DNA from: Thermoproteota archaeon
GTDB taxonomy: Archaea > Thermoproteota > Thermoprotei > Thermofilales > B9-G17
Length of the DNA stretch: 64,000 nt
Assembly: GCA_029258885.1 (NCBI GenBank)
Contig: JAPDJW010000002.1
Coordinates: forward strand, 128,001 to 192,000
Direction of reading: 5' to 3'
The notes under the pieces are model-generated. The model had not been told where the DNA came from. It saw only the letters and a program-made list of their open reading frames with translations, and made no database searches. Positions within the stretch are counted from its first letter, which is position 1. Each line of letters begins with the position of its first letter. This document shows positions 30,967 to 48,128 of the stretch, piece after piece. The translations under genes and the position numbers were made by a program.

Positions 30967-31015
30967 GATATCACTCCTAAGCTATTCACTGGCTTCATAT
31001 ATTTAAACTTTAAAG

Positions 31016-31133
31016 CATCATATTTAAAATAGAGCTTATTAGAGTAAGAATCTAACATATAGATGCATTAAAATATAGTAATATCATAATATTTTTGCGA
31101 ATTAGGGTTTTATAATAAAACTTAAATATGATG
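31016..31133. promoter_or_regulatory. Inverted pair of a 12-bp motif in the divergent promoter
   Basis: CATCATATTTAA (31016-31027) is the exact reverse complement of TTAAATATGATG (31122-31133). Similarity extends to a shared TTTAAAG. Confidence 0.55.
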
Positions 31134-31179
31134 TTTTTTAAAGAATATATGTTGATAATATGCAGATAAGGTTTTAAAA

Positions 31180-33531
31180 ATGAAGAATATGCTTGGTTAT
31201 TTTTCACATAGGGGTAAAGAATTTATTATCACGTCATATAATTTACCGAGGCCCTGGATAAACATACTTTCAAATGGAAAATATGGGGTACTGCTTTCAC
31301 ATACAGGAGGAGGCTTCAGCTGGCTTATAGACTGTAATCTGAATAGGATAACGAAGTGGTATCAGGACGTCTACAGCGATATGGACGGCAGGTATCTATA
31401 CATAAGAGATAAGGATACGGGGGAGTATTGGTCGCCTACCTATAAGCCTGTCATGAGGGATCTGGATAGCTACGAGTGTAGGCATGGCTTAGGATATAGC
31501 GTAATCAGGAGTAGCTATAAGGGTGTGGAGACGGAGATAATATTCTTCGTCCCTAGGGAGGATACGCTTGAAGTATGGATAGTAAAGCTTAAAAATAATA
31601 CGGGAAGACTGAAAAAACTTGAAGTTTTTACGTATGTTGAATGGTGGCTTGGAACGGCCTACGATATAGACAGGCAATTTCATGGTTTGTTCTATGATTT
31701 ATGGGTTGAGGATAACGTAATGTTTGTAACAAAATATTTTTGGACAGGATACGATGGAAGCTGGAATAGATCATGGGACTATATAGCCTTTCTAGCGACC
31801 TCGATAGCTCCAAGCGGATTCGAGGGAAGTAGGGTTAACTTCGTAGGAAGTGGTGGATCAATTAGAGATCCAGTAGCAGTTAGGGAGGGTGTATGTACAA
31901 ACACTAGTGGGCGGGGCTTTGAGCCAGTAGGCGTGTTTAAGCTCAATATATCCTTAAAGCCAGAAGAGGAGAGAACATTCATAGTTTTAATAGGTGTTGG
32001 GAAAAGCGTGGAGGAGGTCAAAGATTGTGTACGAAAGTACATAGACCTAAGGTATTCACTGGATAGGCTGGAGGATGTTAAGCTCTTCTGGGATAAGCTC
32101 CTGAGTAAAACGCTGGTTGAGACCCCAGATAAATACCTAAACTATCTCGTTAACTACTGGTATAAATACCAGACTATAAGCGCTAGAATCCTATCTAGGA
32201 ACGCCTACTACCAGCAGGCAGCTGCCTACGGCTTTAGAGATCAGCTTCAAGATACGTTAACTCTTCTCTTGGTGGACTACGAGTGGGCTAAGAAACAGAT
32301 ATTGGAGCATGCTAGGCATCAGTTTTCGGATGGAAGCGTGCTACATTGGTGGCATGAACTAAATGATAGGGGCATGAAATCCGAGCATTCGGATACTCCA
32401 CTCTGGCTTCCCTTTATGGTTATAAACTACATAAAGGAGACGGGCGACTACAATTTCCTTAAGCTGAAGGTGCCCTTCTATGATGGTGGGGAGGCGTCAA
32501 TATTTACTCACTGTGAGTTAGCAATAAAGAGATGCCTAAGGAACTTCAGTAAACGAGGCCTACCGTTATTTTTAGCTGGAGACTGGAACGACGGTTTTAA
32601 CGCCATAGGAATTAAGAGGAGGGCTGAAAGCTGCTGGCTCGCAGAGTTCCTATATTTAGTTTTAATGGAGTTCTCGAGGCTATGTACGATTATAGGTGAT
32701 AGGAGAAAAGCCAAAAAATACAGGAGAAAGGCGCGTGAGCTAAAGAGGAAGTTTAATGAATTATGTTGGGATGGTGGCTGGTTTATAAGGGGTTTCGACG
32801 ACGAGGGTGAGGCTATAGGAAGTAGCGCTTGCAGAGAGGGCAAGATATTTCTCAACGCTCAAAGCTGGGCTGTAATTTCAAAAATTACATCGAAGAAAAG
32901 AGCTAAAAAGGCTATAGTATCAGCCGAGAAGATGCTAGATACAGAGTATGGTCCAGCTTTATTCACACCAGCATATAGTCGTCCATACGAAAAACTCGGT
33001 TACATCTCTAGGTATGCTCCGGGAACTAAGGAGAACGCTGGAATATTTATGCATGCTGTAACGTGGATGATCATAGCAGAGTGCATGCTGGGAAGAGCTA
33101 GGAAGGCCTATGAAATATATAGGAAGACTTGTCCAGCATACAGGGGATTGGATCCGTGGAAATGTAAAACAGAGCCCTATGTAACGTCGGAGTGGATAGC
33201 TGGACCTGAATCTAAATACTTTGGTGAGGGATGGAACTCCTGGTTAACAGGCTCAGCTGCGTGGAGCCTTAGAGCGGTTCTCGACTACATATTGGGTATA
33301 AGAGCGGACTACGATGGGCTTATAGTTGACCCATGTATACCAAGGGAGTGGAGGGAATATAGGGTTCGCAGGTTCTTTAGAGGAGCAACCTACGAAATAC
33401 ACGTTAAAAATGAGGCTGGAGTATCTAGGGGGGTAAAAAAGATACTTGTCGATGGAAGTGAGATAAAGGGCGTTAAGCTACCCTTATTCAAAGATGAGGA
33501 AACACACTATGTTGAGGTAATTCTGGGATAG
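31180..33531 (+). CDS. GH94 glycoside phosphorylase
   Basis: PRPWINILSN, YECRHGLGYS, YGFRDQLQD, AGDWNDG, LNAQSWAV, KENAGIFMHA and WLTGSAAW. No signal peptide. Confidence 0.92.
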   Translation: MKNMLGYFSHRGKEFIITSYNLPRPWINILSNGKYGVLLSHTGGGFSWLIDCNLNRITKWYQDVYSDMDGRYLYIRDKDTGEYWSPTYKPVMRDLDSYECRHGLGYSVIRSSYKGVETEIIFFVPREDTLEVWIVKLKNNTGRLKKLEVFTYVEWWLGTAYDIDRQFHGLFYDLWVEDNVMFVTKYFWTGYDGSWNRSWDYIAFLATSIAPSGFEGSRVNFVGSGGSIRDPVAVREGVCTNTSGRGFEPVGVFKLNISLKPEEERTFIVLIGVGKSVEEVKDCVRKYIDLRYSLDRLEDVKLFWDKLLSKTLVETPDKYLNYLVNYWYKYQTISARILSRNAYYQQAAAYGFRDQLQDTLTLLLVDYEWAKKQILEHARHQFSDGSVLHWWHELNDRGMKSEHSDTPLWLPFMVINYIKETGDYNFLKLKVPFYDGGEASIFTHCELAIKRCLRNFSKRGLPLFLAGDWNDGFNAIGIKRRAESCWLAEFLYLVLMEFSRLCTIIGDRRKAKKYRRKARELKRKFNELCWDGGWFIRGFDDEGEAIGSSACREGKIFLNAQSWAVISKITSKKRAKKAIVSAEKMLDTEYGPALFTPAYSRPYEKLGYISRYAPGTKENAGIFMHAVTWMIIAECMLGRARKAYEIYRKTCPAYRGLDPWKCKTEPYVTSEWIAGPESKYFGEGWNSWLTGSAAWSLRAVLDYILGIRADYDGLIVDPCIPREWREYRVRRFFRGATYEIHVKNEAGVSRGVKKILVDGSEIKGVKLPLFKDEETHYVEVILG

Positions 33532-34851
33532 TTATCTGCTATATTTATCAACCCACCTACTATAGACGTCAGTCCAATCTCCTCTTCCAACGAATACTGT
33601 TAGCTGAAACTCCCTTGACTCTCTAGGCCTTAATGTCACAGTATTAAATACTAGCTCTATTGAGTAATAGCTGGGGCTAAAGTAACGTTTTACTAGAGAT
33701 ACATCATCCAGACTCCATAGGATTCCAAGTATTTCTTTCGTTGTATTATTGTAGTAGGCAGCCCATCCATTTGTTACTCTCTCGTCGCTAAGCTGAGTGT
33801 GGCGCCGCTTATACACCTCCTTATATCTTTCCTCGGGAAGTTCCTTAAGATAATACGTCGGCCACGTTATTCCAGAATAGTTGGGTTCAAACCTTTCAAC
33901 GTAAGTTCCGTTTTCAACAGGAAGATACAGCCAGTCATCCGTACTCACATCGCCTCCAATATTTAGATAGTTGCATACCCACAGCGACACCTTCTGCGTA
34001 GTTCTATTTAAGTTTGTAACTATATACTTTACATCAAACTCTGAATTAATGGAATCCATTGAGATCACTTTCTCAAGCTTGATTCTGCCTACGTTTTCTC
34101 CTTCAAGCACCTTAGAGAACATTACCTTTACCCTTTTACCATAGCCCCTAAGTATCTCGTAATCATATCTCTCGTTAGCTAAATATACTCCCCACCCCTC
34201 CTCGAGAAATGTATCATACAGCATGCCCAGCGACTCGTAAACTTCATTGGTTCCAGTTTCCTTATATATCAGGCTATTTATCCTCCCACCGCTGTTTGGA
34301 GCAATTGATAGGAGAAGCTTATTATTCTCCATAACTACTTCATCCACGCCATCCTCGTTAAAATCAAATGTCTTAATCCTGGCCTCATTTATTAAAGGTA
34401 TGTAAGTATCCTCCTTTATCGCCCTAAGTACCAGCCTAGATTTAAGCCCCTTAATGTATGGAATTCTAGATAACCTTTCAATAAACCTAACTAATTCATC
34501 GGATGTTCTGCATCTAACTTTCGCAAATATGTTAGATTCATTCTCAATAACATAAAGTTCCGTAATTTCATGCATGGATGAAAGATTTTTAATTGCCTCA
34601 GAGAGCATAGAGGGCTCGACTTTAATCTCCAGCAGAGAAAGATAGTCATAGTTAACTTTCTTAACGTCAAGCTGAACGGTATACTTCTTAATAATGCCCT
34701 TCTTAACCATCGCATCCATCCTACGCTTAACGGTAGTCGCCGTAGCTTCAATGCCGAATTCCTTAAGGCGCTCAGCTATATCAATAAGCGAGGTCCTGCT
34801 ATTTTCCATTAAAATCATTAGAATTCTCTTATCTATCTCGTCCAGCATCAC
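33532..34851 (-). CDS. Lrp/AsnC regulator fused to a C-terminal carbohydrate-type beta-supersandwich (DUF1926/galactose-mutarotase-like)
   Basis: LDEIDKRILMILMENSRTS HTH plus RAM domain in aa 1-150. Then FDFNEDGVDEVVMENNKLLLSIAPNSGGRINSLIYK. Confidence 0.78.
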   Translation of the reverse strand: MMLDEIDKRILMILMENSRTSLIDIAERLKEFGIEATATTVKRRMDAMVKKGIIKKYTVQLDVKKVNYDYLSLLEIKVEPSMLSEAIKNLSSMHEITELYVIENESNIFAKVRCRTSDELVRFIERLSRIPYIKGLKSRLVLRAIKEDTYIPLINEARIKTFDFNEDGVDEVVMENNKLLLSIAPNSGGRINSLIYKETGTNEVYESLGMLYDTFLEEGWGVYLANERYDYEILRGYGKRVKVMFSKVLEGENVGRIKLEKVISMDSINSEFDVKYIVTNLNRTTQKVSLWVCNYLNIGGDVSTDDWLYLPVENGTYVERFEPNYSGITWPTYYLKELPEERYKEVYKRRHTQLSDERVTNGWAAYYNNTTKEILGILWSLDDVSLVKRYFSPSYYSIELVFNTVTLRPRESREFQLTVFVGRGDWTDVYSRWVDKYSR

Positions 34852-35082
34852 TATACACCCTCGTATCTTCTCCGACTTATGTATTAAAAACTCACATATT
34901 AAAGTTTATTTCGAACAATAACTCGTAAAATTCCAAAATTAACAAGATTATCCATGTACGAAATATGGCTGACTAAAGCTATAATTACTTTAAGGCGATA
35001 TTTAGAAAACAACGTAGTATAGAAAAAAATAAATATTCGATAGTTAAAATATAAAATTGCAGTGTTAAAAAAAGGTGTTAGT

Positions 35083-36276
35083 ATGAATAAAAATAAAGTG
35101 TCGGGCCTACTTATTGCGGTAATGCTTCTTCTAATGCTTCTGCCCATGCTTAGAATAGACAGCTATGTTAAGGCCACTCCCCAAAGAAGAGTTGTATTTG
35201 AATGGGTTAACCAAACAGCCAAGAAGTTCCGTGTAAAGACTTCATACATTGAATGCTACTTTGAGGGAGAGCAGGGTGGAAGCCTAATAGAGATAAAACA
35301 CTACGCCGTACCAAACGTGGATTTTGTAGATGACGTAAAAATGGCTGCGACAGGTCCCGACATCGGCTGGACCTCGTCGAGGTGGGGCATAGACATTTCG
35401 AATGTCACGGTATCCTACAGGGAAATTGAGGAGGATCTATTGGAGGTAAACGTTACTGCATTAAATAATAACATAAAGTTTGAGCATATATTCTACTTTA
35501 CGGACAGCGACGTAATACTGGTCTGGTACAGAGCCACACTCCTAGCGGATATCAATCTAACTTCAATAGGAGCAGAATTCGTACCAGCAACCATAGCTAC
35601 TTCAGGAGCCCAGGTTGTATGTACAGACTACTTCGGTAACCTAATAACCCACACATTGAACGGTAGCATGCTCTATATAGTATTTGGAAATTCAAGCGAA
35701 GGAACACTGCCTCTAAAGGAGAACTGGATGGCCGTATATAACCCAGATGTAAATGCTTTCGCTGGAATAATATGGCTTGACCCGGAGATGTTTATAACCG
35801 ATAAGTCGACCGTAGGCGTATGGGACGGCGCGGTATGGTCTGTAGCTTCGCTCGTCTCTAGATGGTTTGATGATCCCAAGGGCAAGGTATTCCCGAAGGG
35901 AACAATGTTCGAAAACTACCTATTAATAGTCGTCGGCTCTGGAAGCTATGATAGAATTAGGGCATTAGGTGAATTAGTAAGAAACATAAATTCATACTAT
36001 CAGAGAGTAAAGATATCTACACTACTAGAGCAGATAAGCTCGCTCCAGAGCGCATACTCATCTCTACAGTCAGACTACAACTCCCTCCAGACCCAGTATA
36101 ATACACTTCAAACGGAGTATAACTCATTAAAGGCAGAGTTCGATGAATATAAAGCTCAATATACGGTTACTCAGGCTCAACTGCAGCAAACACAGATGAC
36201 TTCAATAATTATAGGCATTGTAATAGGTCTAATAATAGGATTCGCTTTAGGATGGTTTATAAAGAAGAAAAAGTAA
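35083..36276 (+). CDS. Surface protein: signal peptide, beta-supersandwich, coiled-coil stalk, C-terminal TM
   Basis: ATG at 35083 after AAGGTG. Contains the EQGGSLIEIKH motif, heptad repeats and the IIIGIVIGLIIGFALGWFIKKKK anchor. Confidence 0.7.
   Translation: MNKNKVSGLLIAVMLLLMLLPMLRIDSYVKATPQRRVVFEWVNQTAKKFRVKTSYIECYFEGEQGGSLIEIKHYAVPNVDFVDDVKMAATGPDIGWTSSRWGIDISNVTVSYREIEEDLLEVNVTALNNNIKFEHIFYFTDSDVILVWYRATLLADINLTSIGAEFVPATIATSGAQVVCTDYFGNLITHTLNGSMLYIVFGNSSEGTLPLKENWMAVYNPDVNAFAGIIWLDPEMFITDKSTVGVWDGAVWSVASLVSRWFDDPKGKVFPKGTMFENYLLIVVGSGSYDRIRALGELVRNINSYYQRVKISTLLEQISSLQSAYSSLQSDYNSLQTQYNTLQTEYNSLKAEFDEYKAQYTVTQAQLQQTQMTSIIIGIVIGLIIGFALGWFIKKKK
36046..36150 (+). repeat. Imperfect 21-bp (7-aa) tandem repeats forming a coiled coil
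   Basis: LQSAYSS-LQSDYNS-LQTQYNT-LQTEYNS-LKAEFDE. Confidence 0.7.
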
Positions 36277-36297: not shown

Positions 36298-38244
36298 ATG
36301 AAAAAACTTTTTTTATTTATAATAATTTTAGTGGTAAGCCTAGTAGCTAAGCCCCTTATCGGCGTATTTTCCTATAGTAATGATGAAGTCTACGAAAACT
36401 ACAAGTATAAGGCAACAGTACATATAACCGAGACAGCTGGCGTGGATAGATTCTTTGAGCTCGTAATAGTAAGAACTCCACCAATTGATGTAAGCGTTTT
36501 CAAAATAGACTACTTAAGCGGGCCGTCCTCGGCTAAACATGGAGGCGTAGCCTACGTAAAGGATGTACTCGTAGTAAAGGCTGAAGGAGATAAGCTTATT
36601 GAAATACCATCCCAAACCGGCGATGTCATATTTTATCCTAACAATACGGTATCCTTCAACATCTATTTCCTAATTAATATTTCTGGGAACAGCAGAGATA
36701 CATACTACATCTACTTCGGAGCTAAGGATCCAAGCAAGATTGAAGATCCGCTGAAAAAGTATAAGACTGATCTAAGATTCTCAGAAACTAAAACCGGGGG
36801 AGTAAGCGTAGAAAACACCTATTACAACGTTACCGTTGATTCCTCACTTGGAGGCTGGCTGACTAGCCTAATACATAAAGCTGGAAGCGGCACAAAGTAT
36901 GTACATGGCGATAGTGGAGGAGGAGCCTTCATATACTATAAAAACAGGTGGTTATCCCAAGTTTTTAATACAAAGAAGGTGGAGTATAGGATTTGTGCAT
37001 TAGGTCCAATAGCAGTGCACGTGGAATTCTGGGGACCTATAGTAGATACATCGAAGAAGGATCTCGGAGTAGGAGAGTATCATACAACATGGATATTTAC
37101 AGCCTATTCTCCGAGGATAATCCTGATACAAAACGTTACTTTGAAGACCGTAATTAAAGCCAACGATTTTAGACCAATACAGTTTTTCATACCAAAGTTC
37201 AACTGGTATGATTTCTACGTCTTACAGTCAGATAGAACGCTCTATCAGGGGTCCGTAACGAAGTCCGTTGATAAGGGTGGAGCAGGAGTGGACTTTAATG
37301 AGGCCTTCTGGGAGGTAGATATAACCAAAAATAATCCACAAGATGCTGTTGCCGTAATACCTGAACACCCAATCTTTGACCTAGTTAAGGAGCACTGGTA
37401 CAATATAGGCTGCCTAGACTACGTTAAAAATACTAGAAATCCGGACACGAGGACGCAGGTATTTGGTCCGGGAACCTACGAGAACCCCGTCAAGTTCTTC
37501 CTGATAATAGATAGAGCAGATAGAATGCTGGAGAACGACTTAAGCATAATATATACGTACGAGAAGCTGCTAAAGCAGCCATTAATAATTGAATCAGAGT
37601 TTCCGGAGATAGAGGTTAAGAGGATTACATATGCAATATACGCCTTCAAGATAGTCGATATAGCTAATAACCCGGTTAAGGACGTTTTAATAGTAAGTGA
37701 TGAAGCGAGACAGAATATTACGGATGAGAATGGAATAGCTTACCTAAACCTGACCTTAGGGAAGAGGACTATAAACATATTCTGGCATAATCTCAGCGTA
37801 GGCACGCTACACATAGTAGCTTCACCAGGTGGCGAAAACCTAACCATACAGATAAATGTCGCTGTAGTAAATGGGCTATCATTCGGCTCTAATGGAACGA
37901 TAGAGTCCCTCCCCACGGTAAGTAATGAAAAGATTTCATTAAATATCTCGTCTACGCCCAACACACTAGTATTATGCATAGTCACAGGATTGGAGAAGGG
38001 TCCATTAGCGGTTAAGGTAAATGGGGTCGTAGGCTCAAGCGGATACGACTACACGTACAGGGACGGAGTTTTAACAATATATGCCATAACCGACGCCAAG
38101 GGTAAAGCCGCAATCGAGATAATGTTCGTTTCAGAGGAAATCCTACCCTTCTACATGTTTCTTCTGGCGATAATATTCGGCTTTATCATACTAGCTATAC
38201 TGCCTTTTGCGTATCATTTAAGGGGTGAGAAATATGTCAGGTGA
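36298..38244 (+). CDS. Surface protein: signal peptide, beta-supersandwich, Ig-like domains, C-terminal TM
   Basis: VENTYYNVTVDSSLGGWLTSLIHK motif, VDIANNPVKDV carboxypeptidase-regulatory-like segment and a hydrophobic tail. Confidence 0.65.
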   Translation: MKKLFLFIIILVVSLVAKPLIGVFSYSNDEVYENYKYKATVHITETAGVDRFFELVIVRTPPIDVSVFKIDYLSGPSSAKHGGVAYVKDVLVVKAEGDKLIEIPSQTGDVIFYPNNTVSFNIYFLINISGNSRDTYYIYFGAKDPSKIEDPLKKYKTDLRFSETKTGGVSVENTYYNVTVDSSLGGWLTSLIHKAGSGTKYVHGDSGGGAFIYYKNRWLSQVFNTKKVEYRICALGPIAVHVEFWGPIVDTSKKDLGVGEYHTTWIFTAYSPRIILIQNVTLKTVIKANDFRPIQFFIPKFNWYDFYVLQSDRTLYQGSVTKSVDKGGAGVDFNEAFWEVDITKNNPQDAVAVIPEHPIFDLVKEHWYNIGCLDYVKNTRNPDTRTQVFGPGTYENPVKFFLIIDRADRMLENDLSIIYTYEKLLKQPLIIESEFPEIEVKRITYAIYAFKIVDIANNPVKDVLIVSDEARQNITDENGIAYLNLTLGKRTINIFWHNLSVGTLHIVASPGGENLTIQINVAVVNGLSFGSNGTIESLPTVSNEKISLNISSTPNTLVLCIVTGLEKGPLAVKVNGVVGSSGYDYTYRDGVLTIYAITDAKGKAAIEIMFVSEEILPFYMFLLAIIFGFIILAILPFAYHLRGEKYVR

Positions 38245-40216
38245 AGCAAGCACAGGGGCTAAACTAGTAAAGGCATACGTGCTAGGAATACTATTAACAA
38301 TTATAGTGACGATGGTTAACAGCTTTGCCTGGATCTTAGCTCCAGGAGCAGATTTCCCCATTAGCATTCTAGCGCCTATACTCATTCTATTCATCCTAAG
38401 GATAGTCTCAGATATTGGAGCCAAATTATCTAAGGAAAGTATGGCCATAATATACTCGATGATCCTTGTCTCCATAGGATGGAGCTTCATATCTGCTTTC
38501 TGGATATCACAGGCATCCGGCTCGGTCTACGTACCCAGACTGAGGGCTATAGTCTCCCAATGGATTCCCGATTTATGGACTCCTAGGAGCATACTCATAT
38601 TAAAAGGGATGTTTCTCGGTGGCAGTATACCATGGGATGCATGGATGACTCCGGTGCTGTTCTGGATCGCTCTTGCATTAGCATGGGCTTTCCTACTATT
38701 ATCACTAATGCCTCTCTTCAGCACAATATTCGTAGATATAGAGAGACTTTCATTCCCACTATCAACAATACCCCTAGCAATTATAGGTAAAAGTAGCGGC
38801 AGTAAGTTCAGCGAGTACTTTAGGGATATACTATTCATAGGTGGTTTACTCATAGCAATTGCCTTCACTTTGCCCGATGTAATAAACACTGCCGTGAAAA
38901 ATCCCAATTTCCTGCCTTCTCCAGCTGTCCTCATGACGGTAGACTGGCACGAAGTATTCCCAGAGATAAAATATGTCTTAAGGGGTGCAGTATTGTACAC
39001 CAGCATTACTCCGTTAATGTTTGCCTTCGCTTATCTACTCCCCCTAGATGTTCTGTTAACTCAATGGATAACTTACATTTTCTTCATGATAGTACTCCCA
39101 GTAGTAGATATATACATGCTTCATCCGGAGAGGTTTAGAGAGTACGTCAATAGCCCGGGTTATGCGTGGGACATGACTATATCCCCGGCGTATAGCGTTT
39201 GGAGGACGGAAGCATTAACATTAATAGGAGGAATATACGGCCTAGCACTTTTCTATATAGCCTACAACTGGAGCAACATATCCTCATGGATTAAAAAGCT
39301 ATTCAGGGAGCGGCCTAAGGTGGAGATGTTATCGGGAGTATACTTTGTATTCTCGGCAGTAATACTAATAGCCCTACTAACGATTTCGGGAATGCCTCTA
39401 GTACTATCAATACTACTGCTAATAATGCTTATAGTCTCATCCATAGGAATGACAGCATTAAGAGCATCAGCTGGAGGAAACATATTAAATGGCCTAGTAA
39501 TTGGAGGAGAATCCAACAGACTCTTCACGCTGGCTTTCCTCTACGATACAGGTGGAGCACTAGGAATATTCAATAGCAGACCCAGCCCGACGCCTACTCA
39601 GCAGTGTTTTCTCAGTATGCAAGCTGCAATAATTATAAATGGAGATGCAATGGCATGGAACCCGCTGGCTCTAGGACTAGAGTCATATAAAATATGCAGT
39701 GAATACGGTATAGGTAAAGATAAGGTATTTACCGCACAGGCATTAGCGTTGCTTGTAGCGATACTAGTATCCTTCCCACTTGTGCTCTCAGTATTCTACA
39801 GCTATGGTATTGAAAACATAATATATACCTATCACAGCTCGATAAGAGATATCTTCGCCGAGGCATTTACGAGAGACTTAACCCTGTACTACACTAACGT
39901 TGGGCCTCTTAACGTCCAGTTAAGTAGCCCCTACCTTCCACACACTATAGCTGGAATAATAATAGTAATCGCCTTGATGTACATGAGAATAATGAAGCCT
40001 GGTTTCCCGCTAAATCCAGCGGGATACGTGCTGGGAGCAAGCTTCTTCACCTATCCATGGTGGACAGCATTCCTAGTAGCATGGATTGTTAAGTACATCA
40101 TAATAAGGATAGGTGGAGCCGAGCTCTACGAGAGGACAATAAAGTTCTCAACGGGAATAGCTATCGGAACGGGCATAGGTCTCCTAATGCTATGGTTAGC
40201 TTCACTAACGACCTAA
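38225..40216 (+). CDS. Polytopic membrane protein, OPT-like (DUF6785/DUF6784-type)
   Basis: DIERLSFPL, LPLDVLLT and GFPLNPAGY...WWTAFLVAWIVKYIIIRIGG..LY....GIAIG. Start overlaps the upstream gene. Confidence 0.65.
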   Translation: MRNMSGEASTGAKLVKAYVLGILLTIIVTMVNSFAWILAPGADFPISILAPILILFILRIVSDIGAKLSKESMAIIYSMILVSIGWSFISAFWISQASGSVYVPRLRAIVSQWIPDLWTPRSILILKGMFLGGSIPWDAWMTPVLFWIALALAWAFLLLSLMPLFSTIFVDIERLSFPLSTIPLAIIGKSSGSKFSEYFRDILFIGGLLIAIAFTLPDVINTAVKNPNFLPSPAVLMTVDWHEVFPEIKYVLRGAVLYTSITPLMFAFAYLLPLDVLLTQWITYIFFMIVLPVVDIYMLHPERFREYVNSPGYAWDMTISPAYSVWRTEALTLIGGIYGLALFYIAYNWSNISSWIKKLFRERPKVEMLSGVYFVFSAVILIALLTISGMPLVLSILLLIMLIVSSIGMTALRASAGGNILNGLVIGGESNRLFTLAFLYDTGGALGIFNSRPSPTPTQQCFLSMQAAIIINGDAMAWNPLALGLESYKICSEYGIGKDKVFTAQALALLVAILVSFPLVLSVFYSYGIENIIYTYHSSIRDIFAEAFTRDLTLYYTNVGPLNVQLSSPYLPHTIAGIIIVIALMYMRIMKPGFPLNPAGYVLGASFFTYPWWTAFLVAWIVKYIIIRIGGAELYERTIKFSTGIAIGTGIGLLMLWLASLTT

Positions 40217-40234
40217 AATTAAGGTGAATACGTA

Positions 40235-43200
40235 TTGAGGAGATCCCATACCAAGCTAAAATATTCATTAATAATTTTTTTAATAATTACTATCCTTTTT
40301 CTTCCGACAGTTTCTGCTTCCCCCGGAAGCTCCACGCCAGTCTCCGACGTAGAAGTAATTAAAAAATTTATAGGCAATAGCACAGCCGCCGTATTAAGCC
40401 ATGTGAGGACTCTTTCTTCCTACGGCTCTAGAGTTGTGGGGACTCAAGGCTTCTATGAAGCTAGAGATTATATAGCGTCGATTATGAGCAATCTGGCTGA
40501 TGAAATATATTACCAGAACTTCACAGTAGCTGTGCCACGCTACGATATAGACTTCTCCTATAGCGTAGACGGTAATAACTATAGAGCCAAAATATATGCA
40601 ATCCTTCCTAATGGCTTCTCTCTAGGTCAGATTGGGGATATAGAGGGAGAACTAGTTTATGTAGGATCCGGCGAGCTTGATTCATATAGAAACATGAATG
40701 TTAACGATAAGATAGTTCTCATAGACTTCGAATCAGAGATAAACTGGCTTAGATACGGGAGCATACTAGGACCCCCCAAGGCATACATCTTCATCGAGCC
40801 GTACGTTCGAGGAGCGACATTTAACGATTCACTGGGTACCGAATTTACGAGAAAAGACGTATATGGACAATACGTCTCCATCCCAATAAATACGCCTAGA
40901 TTCTACGCAAGGATTAGTGATATTAAACATATTCTATCGTTGCTTGAAAATGGGAAAACGATCAAGGGTAAAATACGTGTGAGGGCTGAATGGCGCCTGG
41001 TCAAGGCATGTAATATAATAGGCTACATTAAAGGCACAGTTTTTCCCGACGAGGTATTAATTGTAGCTGCACACTATGACTCCTACTCTATAGTCCCCGA
41101 AATTTCTCCCGGAGCGGATGAAGCTCTTGGAATAAGCTTTATGCTAGAACTAATGAAGTTCTTCAGTATAAATAGGCCGAAAAGATCGATACTTTTCGTA
41201 GCATTATCCGGACACTGGGAAGGCTTGGCTGGAGCAAGGATTTTCACAAAAAACATAATCTTAGGGAAAACTTACAACGTGAAATTATTCATATATCTGG
41301 CTTTTTCGGCATCTGGAAGCGAGCTTGCAATTCTCCATGCAGGACGATTCTACTTTAATCCAACGGCGGGAATAGAGTATCACAGAGCTGGAGTGTTAGA
41401 TAAACTCAACCTCTACATAGGACAATTAAAGATAAAACTGTATGGAGGAGAAAGGAGCGTAGAGAGTTTCATATATCCCGGCTACGCTTGGCTCAACATA
41501 ATATATGGGGATCCTCTCTCAATCTTCGATAGCGAGGCCTTTACACTCGCTGGAGGATACGGTCTAGCCTTCTACGTTCCAGGTCCAAGGCTGTACTGGG
41601 GTACGCCCTACGATGAATATTCCAAGTTTAAAGAGAATTTCGAGAATAACGTAGTTTCAAGGAAGTCAAACTTCCTAGAAGCCTCAGCCTCATTAATATA
41701 TATTCTGGCAAACGACCTAGAGCTTAACATTAAGGAGCCAAGCTTCCGTCTTTTTGATACAAACTATGGTGGCTTCTCCACAATCAGGGGACGCGTATTA
41801 ATATACAACTTAAGCACGGGATGGTATACCCCAGTACCTAATGCTATTGTCAGATTAAGGGTAATAGCCAGCATGCCTAATTCATTTGGCCTCGGAATAT
41901 ACGGTGGATACCCCAAAATAAAGGCCGAATACGTGGAGGGATACTATACTACATCTGGAAGCATAATTAACATAACTGATAGCAAGGGCGAATTCACAAT
42001 ATATGGGATATCGCCGTCAGCCCTCCTGGGAACGGAGTACCTTCCGAGCATAAGGTACAGCTATATAATAGAGGCGTGTATCCTCAATGAAAGAGGCGAG
42101 ATAGAATACTACAGCGACCTAGGAGTACACAGCAGAGATGTAGTGTTTGAAATCAATAGGGAAGAAGAGATGGTAAACCATGTTATTTTCAGATGCGGTT
42201 CAATAATTGCTTATTCGATAATAGAACCTGAAACTCTATCAATACCGAAAATATTTAGGCTTGAGGTAAGGGACGCATTAAGCCACATGACCCCGCAATT
42301 TTACGGAAGCACTTTCTACTCATTCAGCGAGGGATATAGCGCTTTCATAGTATTTTCGAGACCAGATACCCCCATTGAAATATTTATAGTATCGAGAAGC
42401 CCCCTAACAGGCGAACCCAAGCCGCTGGTTTTCCTAAACAATGTAAGCAGAGGACTTAGAGCTGAATATGGTCGTAGCACCTACCTGAAGTTCTCATTCA
42501 TCCAGATAGCAGAAGATCTTTACAATATATGTTCGGAACGCTATAGCATGTTTTATAGTCAGGGGATAAGGAACCTTGAAGTAGAGGATAACCTTAACAG
42601 CATAAGACTGTATCTGGATAAGGCTAGGGAGAAGGTTGCCTTAAACGAATACACTCAGTCCATGATTCTAGCGCTGGAGGCTTGGAAGCTAGCTAGAGAA
42701 GTATACGTGAAACTGTATTACGAAGGTTTAAACATAAGGTTTTCAATAATATTTGTATTTATTCTCCTAATACCCTTTATCTACTTCTTTGAGAGGCTCC
42801 TCTTCATGTACCCCGATATTAAAAGACAGACGCTAGCGATGGTTTCAATTTCTATAGTAATAGTTGTATTCCTATACCTCATGCATCCGGCCTTTAAGCT
42901 GGTAGAGGATCTTTTCCTCCTTTTCCTAGGAGTATTAATTTCTGTATTAACTCTACCTACAATGGCTATACTCTTATTCGACTTCGCTTCGCTACTCTAT
43001 GTATTTAAGAAGAAGGTTAGAGGACCTCACTTTACTGGTATAAGCCGTAGCGGAGCTATAGTTGCAGCTTTCAATATTGGTGCGTCGATGATGAGGCGAA
43101 GAAAACTTAGAAGTAGCCTAACCTTCGCAACCCTAGTCATAATAATTCTAGCACTTATAATATTCTCATTCCCCGCCGTAACCATCGGTGTAGTTAAGCG

Positions 43201-44797
43201 GAACACCTATCTGGCACCAACATACACTGGAATACTCATACGAGATAGCCTGTGGAGAAACATACCTACGAAAGTTATTAATTTAGTAAACTTAACTTTA
43301 AAGGAGTCCGGATACCCCTACAGCATATCAACTAGGGTATGGCTTTACCCATCGGATTCAATATACATAGCTGGCAGGAATGAGGAATTCAAGGGGCTAA
43401 TTAGCGCTTTCTTAGGCTTCGATTGGAGGGAGGATAAGGTATCGGGTATAAGCGGCCTCATTGTGAGGGGTAGATGGTTTAAGGAGAACGATTATCAAGT
43501 ATGTATTGTTGATGAAAAGGCTGTGGAATATCTAGGCATAAATCTAACTAACGTAGCTTTAGGCAGGGAATACCTTACTTTCTCTAATGGATTAAAGCTG
43601 AAGGTGGTAGGCGTAATAAATGGTAAATTATTCAGTAACAAGCTGGAGCTGGATGGAGGAAACTTTACTCTCCTAGATATTAAGGGTATAGCTGTGGGCT
43701 TAAAAGAGGAGCGTATGAAGCTATTCAGATATTTGCCTACCAGTATAGTGCGGGGGGAGGATCTAGGCTACTTCATAGTAATAGTGCCTTCAAAACTAGC
43801 CTTAGACTTGGGAGGAAAAGTCTATAGTATAGCCGTAAAGGTTCATGAAGCTAACATCTATAGGACGCTGGAGGCCATCGACGATATAGCTAAAAATCTA
43901 GCATTAAGGCTAAACAAGACGTACTTTATATACGCCGTACAATTAACTCCGAAAAAGACTTTAAGTGTCTATAGATATATGGTCTCCCCAGTGTATGTAT
44001 CAGGAAGCGTAGAGCAGCTCGTAATACCGATTGCTATAGGCATATTAATACTATTCAACTCTATGCTATCAAACGTGTACGAGAGAGCTAAGGAAATAGG
44101 CGTCTACAGCGCATTAGGATTATCGCCTTATCATGTATCGGGAATGTTTCTAGCTGAAGCAGTAATTCTAGCCGTAGTAAGTAGCATGATAGGTTATTTA
44201 ATGGGCGTATTCCTGGCTAAAATGATAAACGTATTCAAGCTATTCCCCAAAATATATCTAAACTTCACCATCAGCATACCGATATATTCAACTATGCTTT
44301 CGATAGCTGCATCCCTGCTTGCTATATGGTATCCAGTACTCAGAGCATCTAAGATGGTAACACCATCCTTTGAAAGGGAATGGAAGCCAAAAAGCAAGCC
44401 TAGAGGAGATGCCTGGATAGTAAACCTGCCGTTCGTAGCTACAAGTATGAGCGAAGCTAAGGCTATTCTTAAATTCATCTTGGAGTACCTCGAACATTAT
44501 AGAGTACACGGCAAAATATTCACTACGCTGGAGGCAGGTATACGCTACGAGGAGGAAACGCCGGTACTCAAGGCAAAACTTCAGATGGCACCATATGAGC
44601 TTGGAATACAGCAGGACGTATCTATAGTTATATCCAGGATAGCGGAAGAACGATACTCGTTCACGCTTGAAATGAGGAGAATTAGAGGTCCAAGACAGTC
44701 TTGGATAAGATCCTCGACTATTCTTGCGAGAGAGCTTAGAAAGCAATTCCTAATATGGAGGGGGTTAAGTCTTGAGGAGAAGAGAAAATACGAATAA
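40235..44797 (+). CDS. 1520-aa fusion of an M28-peptidase-like/PA ectodomain with FtsX-type permease domains
   Basis: SRVVGTQG, AAHYDS, PGADEALG and LSGHWEGLAG. Then RRRKLRSSLT and SNVYERAKEIGVYSALGLSP....FLAE. Confidence 0.78.
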   Translation: MRRSHTKLKYSLIIFLIITILFLPTVSASPGSSTPVSDVEVIKKFIGNSTAAVLSHVRTLSSYGSRVVGTQGFYEARDYIASIMSNLADEIYYQNFTVAVPRYDIDFSYSVDGNNYRAKIYAILPNGFSLGQIGDIEGELVYVGSGELDSYRNMNVNDKIVLIDFESEINWLRYGSILGPPKAYIFIEPYVRGATFNDSLGTEFTRKDVYGQYVSIPINTPRFYARISDIKHILSLLENGKTIKGKIRVRAEWRLVKACNIIGYIKGTVFPDEVLIVAAHYDSYSIVPEISPGADEALGISFMLELMKFFSINRPKRSILFVALSGHWEGLAGARIFTKNIILGKTYNVKLFIYLAFSASGSELAILHAGRFYFNPTAGIEYHRAGVLDKLNLYIGQLKIKLYGGERSVESFIYPGYAWLNIIYGDPLSIFDSEAFTLAGGYGLAFYVPGPRLYWGTPYDEYSKFKENFENNVVSRKSNFLEASASLIYILANDLELNIKEPSFRLFDTNYGGFSTIRGRVLIYNLSTGWYTPVPNAIVRLRVIASMPNSFGLGIYGGYPKIKAEYVEGYYTTSGSIINITDSKGEFTIYGISPSALLGTEYLPSIRYSYIIEACILNERGEIEYYSDLGVHSRDVVFEINREEEMVNHVIFRCGSIIAYSIIEPETLSIPKIFRLEVRDALSHMTPQFYGSTFYSFSEGYSAFIVFSRPDTPIEIFIVSRSPLTGEPKPLVFLNNVSRGLRAEYGRSTYLKFSFIQIAEDLYNICSERYSMFYSQGIRNLEVEDNLNSIRLYLDKAREKVALNEYTQSMILALEAWKLAREVYVKLYYEGLNIRFSIIFVFILLIPFIYFFERLLFMYPDIKRQTLAMVSISIVIVVFLYLMHPAFKLVEDLFLLFLGVLISVLTLPTMAILLFDFASLLYVFKKKVRGPHFTGISRSGAIVAAFNIGASMMRRRKLRSSLTFATLVIIILALIIFSFPAVTIGVVKRNTYLAPTYTGILIRDSLWRNIPTKVINLVNLTLKESGYPYSISTRVWLYPSDSIYIAGRNEEFKGLISAFLGFDWREDKVSGISGLIVRGRWFKENDYQVCIVDEKAVEYLGINLTNVALGREYLTFSNGLKLKVVGVINGKLFSNKLELDGGNFTLLDIKGIAVGLKEERMKLFRYLPTSIVRGEDLGYFIVIVPSKLALDLGGKVYSIAVKVHEANIYRTLEAIDDIAKNLALRLNKTYFIYAVQLTPKKTLSVYRYMVSPVYVSGSVEQLVIPIAIGILILFNSMLSNVYERAKEIGVYSALGLSPYHVSGMFLAEAVILAVVSSMIGYLMGVFLAKMINVFKLFPKIYLNFTISIPIYSTMLSIAASLLAIWYPVLRASKMVTPSFEREWKPKSKPRGDAWIVNLPFVATSMSEAKAILKFILEYLEHYRVHGKIFTTLEAGIRYEEETPVLKAKLQMAPYELGIQQDVSIVISRIAEERYSFTLEMRRIRGPRQSWIRSSTILARELRKQFLIWRGLSLEEKRKYE

Positions 44798-46661
44798 ATT
44801 AAAAGAAGGCTTCACTATAAGGTCAATCTTAGGAATACTCTATGTAATACTAATACTATTGCCCACAAACATGTACTATACTTTAGCCATAGGCGGAAGC
44901 CTAGCGTTTGCAGCGCCGATAATATCCCTAATATTCTTCCTTGAAGTATTCCGCTTCTCGGAACGTCCGCTGACGAAACAGGAGGCTTTTATCATATACT
45001 CGATAGCCTCTGAAGCAGCTATGGGGAGCGTTGCGATGGCCCTGATAGGAAACGTATATTTTAGGGCAAGTCCGATGGCAGAGTACTTTGGAATAAGCGG
45101 AATAATACCCGACTGGTGGGCGCCAGCTCCCACATCCGAGGCAATACAGCTCCGCACGTTCTTCCACAGCGACTGGATTCTACCAATAACAATTCTATTC
45201 TCTGCGTGGACTCTAGGAAAAATCATAGATTTCTCGCTAGCAACATACCTCTACTACCAGCTGATAGAGATAGAGAACCTACCCTTCCCGCTAGCTAAGG
45301 TCTCAGCTGAAACAGTACTAAGCTTAGCAGACCCCAGATACGCGCATAAGAGGAGGATGTTCGCTATTGCAAGTATCGTTGGGCTGGCATATGGAATAAT
45401 AACATACTTAGTACCGATACTAACCGACTATAGGTTAGTCATAATTCCATCCCCATTCTACGATCTAACCAGATATATTGAGCATATTGCGCCGGGAGCC
45501 AGCTTGGGAGTATCAACGGACTTGGTGGCATATACTGTAGCCTTCTATATGCCTCACAGTTTCATCATAGTACTATTTATGACGTCCCTGGCAGTATACC
45601 TCTTCGGAAACCACCTGCTGGTTAAAAACGGCTATTTCAAACTCTACATGCCCGGAATGAGCCTTGGGGAAATATTCACGTGGTCCTACATCTCCTACTG
45701 GATAAACCCAACAGTAGGATTCGGAGTAGCAATAGCACTCTTCCAAATAATATACAATAGAAAGTATATTCTAGATGCTATAGGGAAGTTCGGACAGGTA
45801 GGTGAGGTTGCTACACTCAAGACAAAATTGCCAGCATACATGTTCTTTGCATCCACCGCCATAGCTTCCCTCATGGCATGGGCTCTCTCAGGCTTCAACC
45901 CATACTACCTATTAATCATAGTCTCGGTTTCAATAGTCTGGTCGTTCCTGTTCTCACATCTACAGGGAAGAGCTCTAGCAGAATTCGGAATTACGTTTGA
46001 TATACCATACTTCGTGCCTGCAATAATATATATAAGTGGAGCCAGGGACCCCAAGCTATGGTTTGTACAGACTGCTGGCTTCACAGTCTATACAGGAGGA
46101 GTTAGTTTACTCCAGCAGTTGAAGGTAGCAACTCTCTGTGAGACTAAGCCAATGAGCTATATTAAAGCCTGGTTCTTCACGTGGTTCGTAGGGGCAATAG
46201 CGAGCATAATATTTCTACAAATGTTCTGGAGCATAGCTCCGATACCCTCCTCGATGTATCCGGCATCGCTAATAAACTTCCCAGTACAGGCAGCTGAACA
46301 ATATTTACTTCTATCTACAGTCACCGAAATAGGGAGTAAGGCCATTACGCTGGATATCCACAGCATTACATACGGCTTCATTATTGGAGTAGTTTTATCA
46401 GCGCTAGCATACCTCCTAGGAAAATCGCCTTCACTAATAGGCCTAGGAATACTTGCAGGCATGAGGACATGGATATCAACGGCCATATCGTTTACAATAG
46501 GAATAGTAATTGCTAGGATAATTCAGAAAATATTGGGAAGGGAGAAGTGGGAGGATAGCAGATTCGTTATTGCAGCTGGGACATACGCTGGACTGGGGCT
46601 GGCAATAGGATTAAGCGTAATTATATTGTTCCTAAAGAAGGCATTAATTCTGCCGTACTAG
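44772..46661 (+). CDS. OPT-like polytopic membrane protein
   Basis: FTIRSILG, PLTKQEAFII, IENLPFPLA, PGASLG and W......AAG...G.GL. Overlaps the upstream gene. Confidence 0.7.
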   Translation: MRRRENTNKLKEGFTIRSILGILYVILILLPTNMYYTLAIGGSLAFAAPIISLIFFLEVFRFSERPLTKQEAFIIYSIASEAAMGSVAMALIGNVYFRASPMAEYFGISGIIPDWWAPAPTSEAIQLRTFFHSDWILPITILFSAWTLGKIIDFSLATYLYYQLIEIENLPFPLAKVSAETVLSLADPRYAHKRRMFAIASIVGLAYGIITYLVPILTDYRLVIIPSPFYDLTRYIEHIAPGASLGVSTDLVAYTVAFYMPHSFIIVLFMTSLAVYLFGNHLLVKNGYFKLYMPGMSLGEIFTWSYISYWINPTVGFGVAIALFQIIYNRKYILDAIGKFGQVGEVATLKTKLPAYMFFASTAIASLMAWALSGFNPYYLLIIVSVSIVWSFLFSHLQGRALAEFGITFDIPYFVPAIIYISGARDPKLWFVQTAGFTVYTGGVSLLQQLKVATLCETKPMSYIKAWFFTWFVGAIASIIFLQMFWSIAPIPSSMYPASLINFPVQAAEQYLLLSTVTEIGSKAITLDIHSITYGFIIGVVLSALAYLLGKSPSLIGLGILAGMRTWISTAISFTIGIVIARIIQKILGREKWEDSRFVIAAGTYAGLGLAIGLSVIILFLKKALILPY

Positions 46662-46779
46662 GGATAGCTCATATGCGGCGGCCAGCGTCATCCCCCTAAG
46701 GGGGTACGTATTTATATAATTAATCATCGCCGTAAATAGTAATCCCAAACTTATACTTAAGTATTGAGGATATAGCAAC

Positions 46780-48030
46780 TTATTCAATACTTTCATCCCT
46801 AGCAGATGGCTTTAACAACCATTTCCATAGAGGCACCACCTCAATACATTTATCCTTTATATCAATGACGTCTTCCTCCGCCCATGTGATAATTGTCCCC
46901 CTCTTTATCTTCAGCTCATTCAAAGCTTTAAACATCTTCTTTACATGGCTCTGCTGTACTTCGTATGTAACCTCAATTAGATCTTTTACATATCCCCTTT
47001 CCCTTACTAGGAAATCTACCTCTTCTCTACCCTTGGTTCTATAGTATGATATGTCCGTAAATGGACTACTTCTTCTAAGCAGTTCTATAAAAACTAGGTT
47101 TTCAATTTTTCTCCCGATATCAAGAGTCTCCGGAAAGAGGTTTGAAAAGGATACATCAATAACATACAGTTTCCTAGGGTTAACTATACGACTCCGCTGA
47201 GAATAGGAAAATATCTCCAGAGTATAGACGAGGAAGGCCTGCTTCATGTAGCCTATATAGTTTATCAGGGTTTTTACATCTATATCCACGCCCATAGACT
47301 TCAATATGCGATTTATAGATCTATAGGATATCAGATTAGAATAGTTTGATAAAGTAAAATAGAAAACAGACTTAAAGATCTCAATATTTTCGATATTGAA
47401 CCTCTCAATTATGTCCTTAAAGAATATAGTCTCAAGCAAGCTTATGATCTTCTCCCTAGACCTCTGTAACCAAACCTCAGGAAAACCTCCCCACTTAAGA
47501 TACTCTTCAAGCAAGCGTAGTATTCTTCCTCTCTCCCTAAACGTTCTTACCTCAAAGTCTACTAGCTCCCTAAACGATAGGGGGTATAGGATTTTAGAGA
47601 TATATCGTCCCCTTAATCTCTTGGGAATCTCTGAGGACATTAAAGTAGATGAAGAGCCTGAAACATATATTCTGAAATCTTTGACGTCGTGAAGCCACCG
47701 CAGATTAAAGTCCCAGTTCTCCCACTCCTGAATCTCGTCTAAGAAAAGATAAACACGACCATGAGGATAATCCTTCCTCACGAGCTCCGCAAATTTTCTA
47801 ACATCCATCTTTCTCAGAAAAGGCTCATCTAGAGAAGCGTATATTACCTGCTTACCGGAATCCAGTAGTTCCCTAGCTTTTTTCAATAACATAAATGTTT
47901 TCCCTACCCTTCTAGCTCCTATCAATGCAAGAATATCCGTGTACTCTCCAAGCTCCATTCTCCTTCTAATCTCCCTTACATACCTCAAAGATTCCAGATA
48001 CTCGTAGGTTATCTCAAGCAGGCTTACCAT
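46780..48030 (-). CDS. AAA_14 ATPase with DUF4143 (archaeal ATP-binding protein)
   Basis: GARRVGKT, FLDEIQ, VSGSS, WGGFPE, KLYVID, ENLVF and EVDF. Confidence 0.88.
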   Translation of the reverse strand: MVSLLEITYEYLESLRYVREIRRRMELGEYTDILALIGARRVGKTFMLLKKARELLDSGKQVIYASLDEPFLRKMDVRKFAELVRKDYPHGRVYLFLDEIQEWENWDFNLRWLHDVKDFRIYVSGSSSTLMSSEIPKRLRGRYISKILYPLSFRELVDFEVRTFRERGRILRLLEEYLKWGGFPEVWLQRSREKIISLLETIFFKDIIERFNIENIEIFKSVFYFTLSNYSNLISYRSINRILKSMGVDIDVKTLINYIGYMKQAFLVYTLEIFSYSQRSRIVNPRKLYVIDVSFSNLFPETLDIGRKIENLVFIELLRRSSPFTDISYYRTKGREEVDFLVRERGYVKDLIEVTYEVQQSHVKKMFKALNELKIKRGTIITWAEEDVIDIKDKCIEVVPLWKWLLKPSARDESIE

Positions 48031-48128
48031 ACCTATCTGTAGAATATTGTTCCACAAAAAATATAAATTTTATGGAATAATACTCCACAATACAATAACC
48101 AATCTACTAGAAGTTTAAGCAATCGAAA

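Follow-up and report, generated by a model that had tools for sequence, protein, structure and literature searches.

Gene organization of the locus

We analysed a 64,000-nt stretch of archaeal DNA (the window; G000:C1:128001-192000, where G000 is the source genome, 2.1 Mb in 26 contigs) that carries three adjacent genes, hereafter the triad, encoding P1, a 1520-aa protein that we call the giant, and P3 (Table 1). The giant joins an M28-peptidase-like segment to an FtsX/MacB-type permease module, and the two proteins that flank it are polytopic membrane proteins resembling the OPT transporters. The P1 and giant genes are separated by 18 nt, and those of the giant and P3 overlap by 26 nt. Upstream lie two genes for surface-anchored proteins of 404 and 648 aa, the first ending 21 nt 5' of the second, which in turn overlaps the P1 gene by 20 nt. 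This 21-nt gap and 20-nt overlap, together with the spacing within the triad, make it probable that the five genes form one operon. Its start is preceded by a 210-nt AT-rich spacer common to a divergent regulator gene, and a GC-rich hairpin with a T-rich tail is a possible end, such sites being as frequent in shuffled sequence. Near-identical DNA is present in at least ten hydrothermal-vent or sediment metagenome runs.

Table 1. Features of the window (window positions) and of the source genome outside the triad (G000 contig positions)
Feature	Position	Strand	Remarks
GH144-like glucanase, surface-anchored	28699-30966	-	Glycoamylase/DUF3131
GH94 phosphorylase	31180-33531	+	no room for a signal peptide
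Lrp/AsnC-type regulator fused to a sugar-enzyme-like domain	33532-34851	-	divergent from the operon
404-aa surface-anchored protein	35062-36276	+	first gene of the probable five-gene operon
648-aa surface-anchored protein	36298-38244	+	signal peptide 5-23, C-terminal transmembrane segment 620-638
P1 (P0001), 663 aa, GTG start	38225-40216	+	Pfam DUF6785 and DUF6784
Giant (P0002), 1520 aa, TTG start	40235-44797	+	M28 and FtsX
Giant, M28-like segment, residues 260-356	41012-41302	+	Pfam M28 2.9e-12, profile positions 1-93 of 193
Giant, FtsX/MacB-type module, residues 964-1374	43124-44356	+	Pfam FtsX 6e-17 (residues 1265-1374)
Giant, cytoplasmic C-terminal domain, residues 1375-1520	44357-44794	+	beta-sheet and long helices, confidently folded in the model
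P3 (P0003), 629 aa, TTG start	44772-46661	+	OPT fold
GC-rich hairpin and T-rich tail	46690-46705	+	29 nt 3' of the last stop, consensus match
A1, orphan MacB/LolD-type ATPase	G000 C2:342683-343423		239 bits to LolD, 229 bits to MacB
A2 ATPase	G000 C2:376287-377009		closest A1 paralog, 72% identical; follows mini-FtsX
mini-FtsX, 220 aa	G000 C2:377013-377675 (L035:5013-5675)	-	directly precedes A2
Six large FtsX proteins lacking M28	G000 C2:159914-163969, C3:29551-32688, C1:266426-269827, C4:94913-97876, C2:99812-102685, C14 ~11239

The giant carries an FtsX module with an intact coupling helix

The giant begins with a signal anchor, which is followed by ~800 aa of ectodomain that include a degenerate PA/M28-like domain, by three additional transmembrane (TM) helices (residues 834-913), by the FtsX module and finally by a cytoplasmic C-terminal domain. 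Within the FtsX module, TM1 (964-982) is followed by an outside domain of ~280 aa and by TM2-4 within residues 1263-1364 (TM2 1263-1281); residues 1283-1295, ERAKEIGVYSALG, form the coupling-helix motif. The AlphaFold2 model of residues 815-1520 (pLDDT 85.7) matched MacB, LolCDE, YbbP (of YbbAP), YtrF (YtrEF), HrtB (HrtBA) and BceB (BceAB) with a Foldseek probability of 1.0, and the periplasmic domains of MacB (3ftj, 5f9q) with TMt of 0.59-0.63; homologues of the giant carry the Pfam MacB_PCD domain (PF12704). The protein thus displays the features of the permeases of type VII ATP-binding cassette (ABC) systems, namely a four-helix FtsX domain, an extracytoplasmic insert between TM1 and TM2 and a coupling helix between TM2 and TM3. 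In MacB-type systems the ERxxEIG coupling helix docks the ATPase. In the giant, this helix (model residues 471-479) reads ERAKEIG, and in an alignment of 39 homologues E469, R470, E473 and I474 are invariant or nearly so. All eight giants of the genome retain the motif, one of them with MR in place of ER.

The peptidase-like segment presents a different picture of conservation. When aligned to the Aeromonas aminopeptidase, the catalytic and zinc-binding pair E151/E152 is replaced by H/W; none of the eight giant paralogs has EE, while the equivalents of D117 and H97 are kept in three and six of them, respectively (the comparison covers H97, D117, E151 and E152, the D179 and H256 equivalents being unalignable). 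Weaker matches were to the transferrin receptor, GCPII and nicalin. Because the canonical di-zinc site is not kept, the M28-like domain is probably a pseudo-peptidase or a receptor scaffold.

The C-terminal domain (~145 aa), with the motif TPSxERxW...RKQFLIWR, is among the most conserved stretches of the family. Foldseek returned weak helix-grip-like matches for it, and the ESM Atlas gave no lead.

OPT-like flanking proteins, distantly paralogous to each other

P3 itself has no match in Pfam, including the OPT family PF03169, which is matched by four of the eight P3-type paralogs of the genome (best E = 2.3e-14). An exhaustive search retrieved relatives of P3 in 479 clusters at 50% identity (E <= 1e-3), and 90 of these clusters served as the input alignment for an AlphaFold2 model of high confidence (pLDDT 92.6, pTM 0.93). 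Searching the PDB with this model returned a single significant fold match, the barley Yellow Stripe 1 transporter HvYS1 (7wst/7wsr; E = 5e-10, TM-score 0.70-0.73 over ~650 columns, 14% identity), the next hits having TM-scores below 0.16; the PDB sequences searched with alignment profiles of P1 and P3 gave no match. The predicted fold and the family matches of the paralogs together confirm that P3 is OPT-like at the fold and superfamily level.

P1 has at least 12 hydrophobic segments and matches DUF6785 (E = 4e-36) and DUF6784 (E = 3.5e-16), with PF03169 unmatched. P1 and P3 share a motif, VDIERLSFPL in the former and IEIENLPFPL in the latter. Their BLASTP similarity is marginal (E = 5e-4). 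By hhalign, profiles built from the in-genome paralogs of each align over 533 columns with a probability of 99.9% (E = 4.8e-32), so that at the level of sequence profiles the two are distant paralogs over their full length.

An earlier interpretation made from the window's letters without database searches (the sequence-only reading) is borne out on these structural points. The three-gene layout that it described, with its 18-nt gap and 26-nt overlap, agrees exactly with the open reading frames. Its proposal that the flanking proteins are OPT-like distant paralogs sharing a (D/E)IExLxFPL motif holds, the motif being present and the homology extending over the whole length. The Foldseek comparison that it suggested, against OPT/YSL and MacB folds, led from the P3 model to HvYS1 and from the C-terminal half of the giant to MacB and its relatives. 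Its description of the middle protein as an M28/FtsX giant is upheld by Pfam and by fold matches, and the large ectodomain could act as the receptor it had envisaged.

Eight triads lie beside carbohydrate genes

The source genome encodes eight giants (the others being 25-29% identical to P0002), eight P3-type and eight P1-type proteins, one of the P1-type proteins being very divergent. The same three families are clustered eight times in 2.1 Mb, with varying gene order and orientation, and this clustering therefore far exceeds chance.

The neighbours of the triads point to carbohydrates. Locus A, in the window, contains a GH94 phosphorylase, a surface GH144-like enzyme and an Lrp-type regulator; loci B and C an AnmK-like kinase, GHL10, GH3 and a beta-propeller surface protein; locus D a TrmB regulator and anchored proteins; locus E a DUF6259 protein; locus F galK, galT and an epimerase (galE); and locus G an anchored GH57 and a maltose-forming-amylase-like protein. 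Each triad locus further includes between one and three genes whose products have both a signal peptide and a C-terminal anchor. No second transporter gene was found in locus A although the GH94 enzyme is cytoplasmic, and for this reason uptake would be the simplest reading of loci that resemble polysaccharide-utilisation loci (PULs). The transport role assigned to the triad by the sequence-only reading is in keeping with this sugar-gene context.

Besides the triads, the genome encodes six further large FtsX proteins (957-1351 aa), devoid of M28, whose C-terminal half is giant-like; none has an adjacent ATPase. Two of the six genes are directly beside triads E and F, and some are unlinked to any OPT-like gene. 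These proteins may be further clients of the engine described below.

A candidate engine is encoded away from the triads

FtsX/MacB permeases normally need an ABC ATPase. In agreement with the sequence-only reading, none adjoins the window triad, the nearest being ~30 kb away, and none was found within ~8 kb at seven of the eight triad loci. At the remaining one, locus E, an ABC ATPase gene lies 1 kb from the triad; we rejected it as a partner, as it is on the opposite strand with an ABC-2 permease and an ArsR-type regulator and also ranks low when compared to FtsX-linked ATPases. The AAA_14/DUF4143 gene just downstream of the window triad (46780-48057, minus strand) was likewise rejected as the engine, the product not being an ABC ATPase.

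Ranking the ATPases of the genome against those found beside ordinary FtsX genes singled out A1, a MacB/LolD-type ATPase with no permease neighbour, encoded between the aIF-1A and Cgi121 genes. Its closest paralog, A2, directly follows the gene of a short FtsX protein, which we call mini-FtsX. This protein consists of an elbow helix, the TM helices of the FtsX domain and a coupling helix, with practically no ectodomain, and we know of no described FtsX protein of this kind. The genome would therefore count eight triads (plus the six large FtsX proteins) against one engine, made of mini-FtsX and A2 (C2:376287-377675) and the orphan A1.

An ordinary FtsX/ATPase pair has probably left a pseudogene at C1:604586-605476, where TAA stops break the ABC ATPase frame downstream of an FtsX gene. 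A protein of ~950 aa often encoded near mini-FtsX and A2 was discarded as a further subunit, since it matches three paralogs of ~900 aa elsewhere in the genome; it looks like a housekeeping gene product, and we suspect an aminoacyl-tRNA synthetase from its size and number of paralogs.

The engine and the triad co-occur in Thermoproteota

We scanned the same 300 other Thermoproteota genomes (301 with the source genome) three times, for P3, for the ATPase and for mini-FtsX. P3-family proteins occur in 62 of these 300. All 62, and six others, also encode an ATPase whose identity to A1 is 63% or more (best E <= 1e-98); matches in the remaining genomes do not exceed 59%. A full-length short mini-FtsX was found in 60 of the 62 and again in six others; genomes without it contain only ordinary FtsX proteins of ~400 aa as matches. 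The three components also switch together within families, namely f2 (genus g3 versus g2), f10 (g45 versus other genera), f23 (G045 versus G101 and G197) and f33 (g67 versus g81).

Genomic linkage was observed in part of these genomes. The mini-FtsX and A2 genes are adjacent in 15 of 20 loci, and A1 joins the pair in family f23. In two complete f10 genomes (L028/L029), a giant-P1-P3-GH57 cluster abuts an ATPase-ATPase-mini-FtsX cluster; the GH57 (841 aa in L029) is related, not identical, to the S. marinus amylopullulanase 7E1Y (E = 1e-78). In G085, A1 is 2 kb from the giant. In genus g67 these parts are arranged otherwise: divergent P1 and P3 genes are followed by genes of ~264, 326, 554 and 445 aa (the last with 8 TM helices) and then by an A-type ATPase (L030-L032), with the giant ~700 kb away from P1/P3.

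The engine joins the giant operon in Armatimonadota

A search with a giant from Armatimonadota, P0180, as the query led to 21 loci. In the eight annotated ones, the giant follows one or two OPT-like genes, and no ATPase was found within 10 kb of it. Mini-FtsX is nevertheless present in all five Armatimonadota genomes searched, with 34-36% identity to the archaeal protein, and in the four whose contig extends past this gene it is accompanied by an ATPase 67-68% identical to A2. Among 151 Armatimonadota genomes, the giant was found in 126 and mini-FtsX in 125, the negatives being nearly the same genomes; in 72, listed coordinates place the two within ~11 kb on one contig. Across Thermoproteota and Armatimonadota, mini-FtsX proteins of 190-250 aa are nearly always directly followed by a MacB-type ATPase.

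Direct operon linkage is seen in G301 (L077), where the order is mini-FtsX, ATPase, a giant of 1676 aa and a P3-type OPT-like gene. In five of six further loci, the order on one strand is giant, OPT-like, one to three small genes, mini-FtsX and ATPase. Since G301 encodes two giants but a single mini-FtsX, bacteria too appear to share one engine among several giants.

The small genes (~140-370 aa) are always located between the OPT-like gene and mini-FtsX in L083-L087; BLAST found no archaeal counterparts for them, and they may encode further subunits. When compared with the source genome, the ATPases of L077, L079-L081 and L083-L087 (67-68%) are far more identical than the mini-FtsX proteins (34-36%), which suggests that the A2-type ATPase is under very strong constraint or has been transferred between domains of life.

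Other genes of the window

The GH144-like and GH94 genes (28699-33531) are divergently transcribed. In bacteria, the pairing of these two enzymes marks the catabolism of beta-1,2-glucan or cellodextrins. In the regulator fusion, residues 1-150 form the regulator and are followed by ~290 aa with weak likeness to DUF5107 and to an AmyA C-terminal domain (beta-sandwich); this protein may be a one-component sugar sensor. The 404-aa protein consists of a signal peptide, a globular N-terminal part, a coiled coil at ~310-380, a C-terminal TM anchor and a basic tail (TM 12-30 and 374-392). It has weak matches only, to coiled-coil or SlaB-like proteins, and shares its architecture with proteins of triad loci D and G. 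It is a candidate substrate-capture protein. Family searches with the 648-aa protein returned no match. The gene content of the window, with Nre, GH57 and Lrp-type genes, is archaeal.

A proposed modular machine with a shared engine

Overall, it is very probable that the triad is a functional unit and fairly likely that this unit depends on an engine encoded elsewhere in the genome. We favour, with reasonable though limited confidence, a modular machine of the type VII ABC class in which the triad confers substrate specificity and the engine is shared, oligosaccharide uptake being its probable task; taken by itself, oligosaccharide import as the function of the triad stands slightly better than an even chance. 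LolC and LolE are a known hetero-pair of unlike FtsX subunits. In a similar manner, the FtsX module of the giant would pair with mini-FtsX under an A1/A2 ATPase dimer, and ATP hydrolysis would move the ectodomain of the giant. The latter would take up oligosaccharides released by the surface-anchored enzymes and binding proteins of the locus and hand them to the OPT-fold pair P1/P3, the putative path through the membrane. One engine would be common to the eight specificity modules, just as EcfAA'T serves many S components. In the window, the substrate would likely be a beta-glucan oligosaccharide destined for the cytoplasmic GH94 phosphorylase. We infer the physical complex, the substrate and the direction of transport, the last from gene context only.

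Several observations weigh against this view. The engine is unlinked to all eight triads in the source genome, and its link to them therefore rests on comparative genomics, in which the sampled genomes are related to one another and are not independent samples. The OPT-like pair of genus g67 is flanked by mini-FtsX and an A-type ATPase, with the giant elsewhere in the genome, hence the three proteins need not form an obligate operon. Since mini-FtsX and A2 stand in housekeeping surroundings in archaea, they could also run a separate process whose distribution merely parallels that of the triads. Finally, the type VII ABC systems studied so far all act outside the cell or expel their substrates; to our knowledge, none imports.

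The absence of an ATPase gene within ~30 kb of the window triad, ~8 kb of seven of the eight triads, and the neighbourhood of the eight annotated Armatimonadota giants is what would be expected if the module were, as the sequence-only reading had it, an ATPase-less heteromeric secondary transporter. On this model transport would be proton-driven, and the FtsX part of the giant, deprived of its ABC partner, would act only as a membrane anchor or receptor. The OPT family is proton-coupled, and the extra cytoplasmic C-terminal domain of the giant, absent from canonical MacB-type permeases, could replace the ATPase. We nevertheless consider this improbable: the coupling-helix motif has survived in every paralog and hardly varies across the family, and the MacB-type ATPases and mini-FtsX accompany the triad almost one-to-one in two phyla, the distribution of the engine mirroring that of the triad. 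The engine moreover adjoins the triad in two complete archaeal genomes and is in the giant/OPT-like operon in most Armatimonadota examined. With an orphan A1 and a mini-FtsX/A2 pair in the source genome itself, and with the ATPase co-occurrence that the sequence-only reading had itself named as speaking against it, the module should therefore not be called ATPase-less.

The main rival grants the engine to the giant and separates the two functions: giant and engine would form an envelope machine similar to FtsEX or LolCDE that spends ATP to install, activate or release the surface-anchored enzymes and binding proteins of the locus, and the OPT-fold proteins would be independent proton symporters that take in the products. 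Characterised type VII ABC systems indeed work on extracytoplasmic targets without import, and the anchored proteins, of which every triad locus has between one and three, are possible targets; the g67 giant unlinked to the OPT-like pair and those M28-less FtsX proteins (six in all, 957-1351 aa) that are unlinked to OPT-like genes fit as well. We judge it unlikely, as giant and OPT-like genes are adjacent at all eight loci despite the shuffled gene order, and again in Armatimonadota, often with overlapping frames as in the window. Linkage this close in both bacteria and archaea suggests that the proteins are partners, physically or in stoichiometry. Very improbable in our estimate is a module that handles peptides or exports a product (efflux, secretion or an envelope precursor) with its sugar neighbours reflecting co-regulation only. 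In its favour, oligopeptides and metal chelates are the known substrates of OPT proteins, MacB-type systems export or extract, and part of the giant resembles a peptidase. However, the catalytic site of the M28-like domain is not conserved, carbohydrate genes are present at all eight loci, including the cytoplasmic GH94 and galK/galT/galE, whose substrate has to be imported, no other importer is encoded in locus A, and the family is abundant in polysaccharide-degrading lineages. In the proteome of one of these, Fervidibacter sacchari, an Armatimonadota polysaccharide degrader, an 'M28 peptidase' and an 'OPT superfamily oligopeptide transporter' were detected and read as peptide catabolism (PMC11535203), which would speak for peptides if these proteins belong to the triad families.

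Significance and comparison with known systems

Full-text literature searches returned no paper on DUF6785 or DUF6784 and no relevant paper on FtsX with OPT or M28 in archaea, and a machine combining FtsX and OPT components appears undescribed. More tentatively, it could represent an undescribed class of modular ABC importers of bacteria and archaea, in which a shared engine (mini-FtsX and one or two MacB-type ATPases) would dock onto interchangeable giants as receptor subunits and drive oligosaccharides, by mechanotransmission, through OPT-fold channels. The module is widespread, given that P3 relatives make up 479 clusters, that 126 of the 151 Armatimonadota genomes sampled encode the giant and that 62 of the 300 other Thermoproteota genomes contain the P3 family. 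If its role is uptake, it would supply the transporter that is 'missing' from many glycan-degradation loci of archaea and bacteria, forming the core of PUL-like loci in archaea and of sugar uptake in Armatimonadota. It would also be the first importer of a type VII ABC class otherwise associated with extrusion and extraction, the first case of an OPT fold coupled to ATP and, in the manner of ECF transporters, an instance of many specificity modules sharing one engine. For annotation, the lesson is that an 'orphan' FtsX permease need not be ATPase-less, as a tiny FtsX and an ATPase encoded elsewhere can be its engine.

With the type VII ABC, or 'mechanotransmission', systems (MacB, LolCDE, FtsEX, HrtBA, BceAB, YbbAP and YtrEF), the giant shares the four-helix FtsX domain, the domain between TM1 and TM2, the N-terminal elbow helix and the ERxxEIG helix, and LolD/MacB-type ATPases co-occur with it, operon-linked in bacteria. 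It differs by its additional N-terminal ectodomain of ~800 aa, three TM helices and cytoplasmic C-terminal domain, and by its presumed partner, an FtsX of 190-250 aa with almost no ectodomain. In the present genome, the ATPases are encoded apart from the permeases, of which they apparently serve at least eight. The tie to OPT-fold permeases is not found in any described type VII system, and the direction would be import.

The known members of the OPT family work alone, as proton symporters of peptides or metal chelates. P3 resembles the OPT/YSL family (TC 2.A.67, PF03169) in its predicted whole-chain fold, size and polytopic topology, and four of its eight in-genome paralogs match PF03169. P1 and P3 themselves have no PF03169 match, P1 being assigned to DUF6785/DUF6784. 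In contrast to OPT/YSL transporters, two divergent paralogs are present per locus and are genomically tied to an ABC-type machine, and the gene context points to oligosaccharides in place of the peptides and metal chelates taken by known members.

The organisation of the loci is analogous to that of the PULs of Bacteroidota (SusC/SusD), each glycan type having its own set of surface-anchored enzymes and binding proteins together with a regulator and an uptake module dedicated to it. Here, however, there is no SusC/SusD or TonB, the archaeon has no outer membrane and the transport proteins are unrelated. The functional analogy is with the energy-coupling factor (ECF) transporters, although neither sequence nor fold shows kinship to EcfT or to the S components and the sharing is deduced here from gene counts and co-occurrence. 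In both cases, a single energising module, composed of two paralogous ATPases and a small membrane subunit and encoded in housekeeping surroundings, would serve many specificity modules in scattered loci, here eight triads and six large FtsX proteins for one engine.

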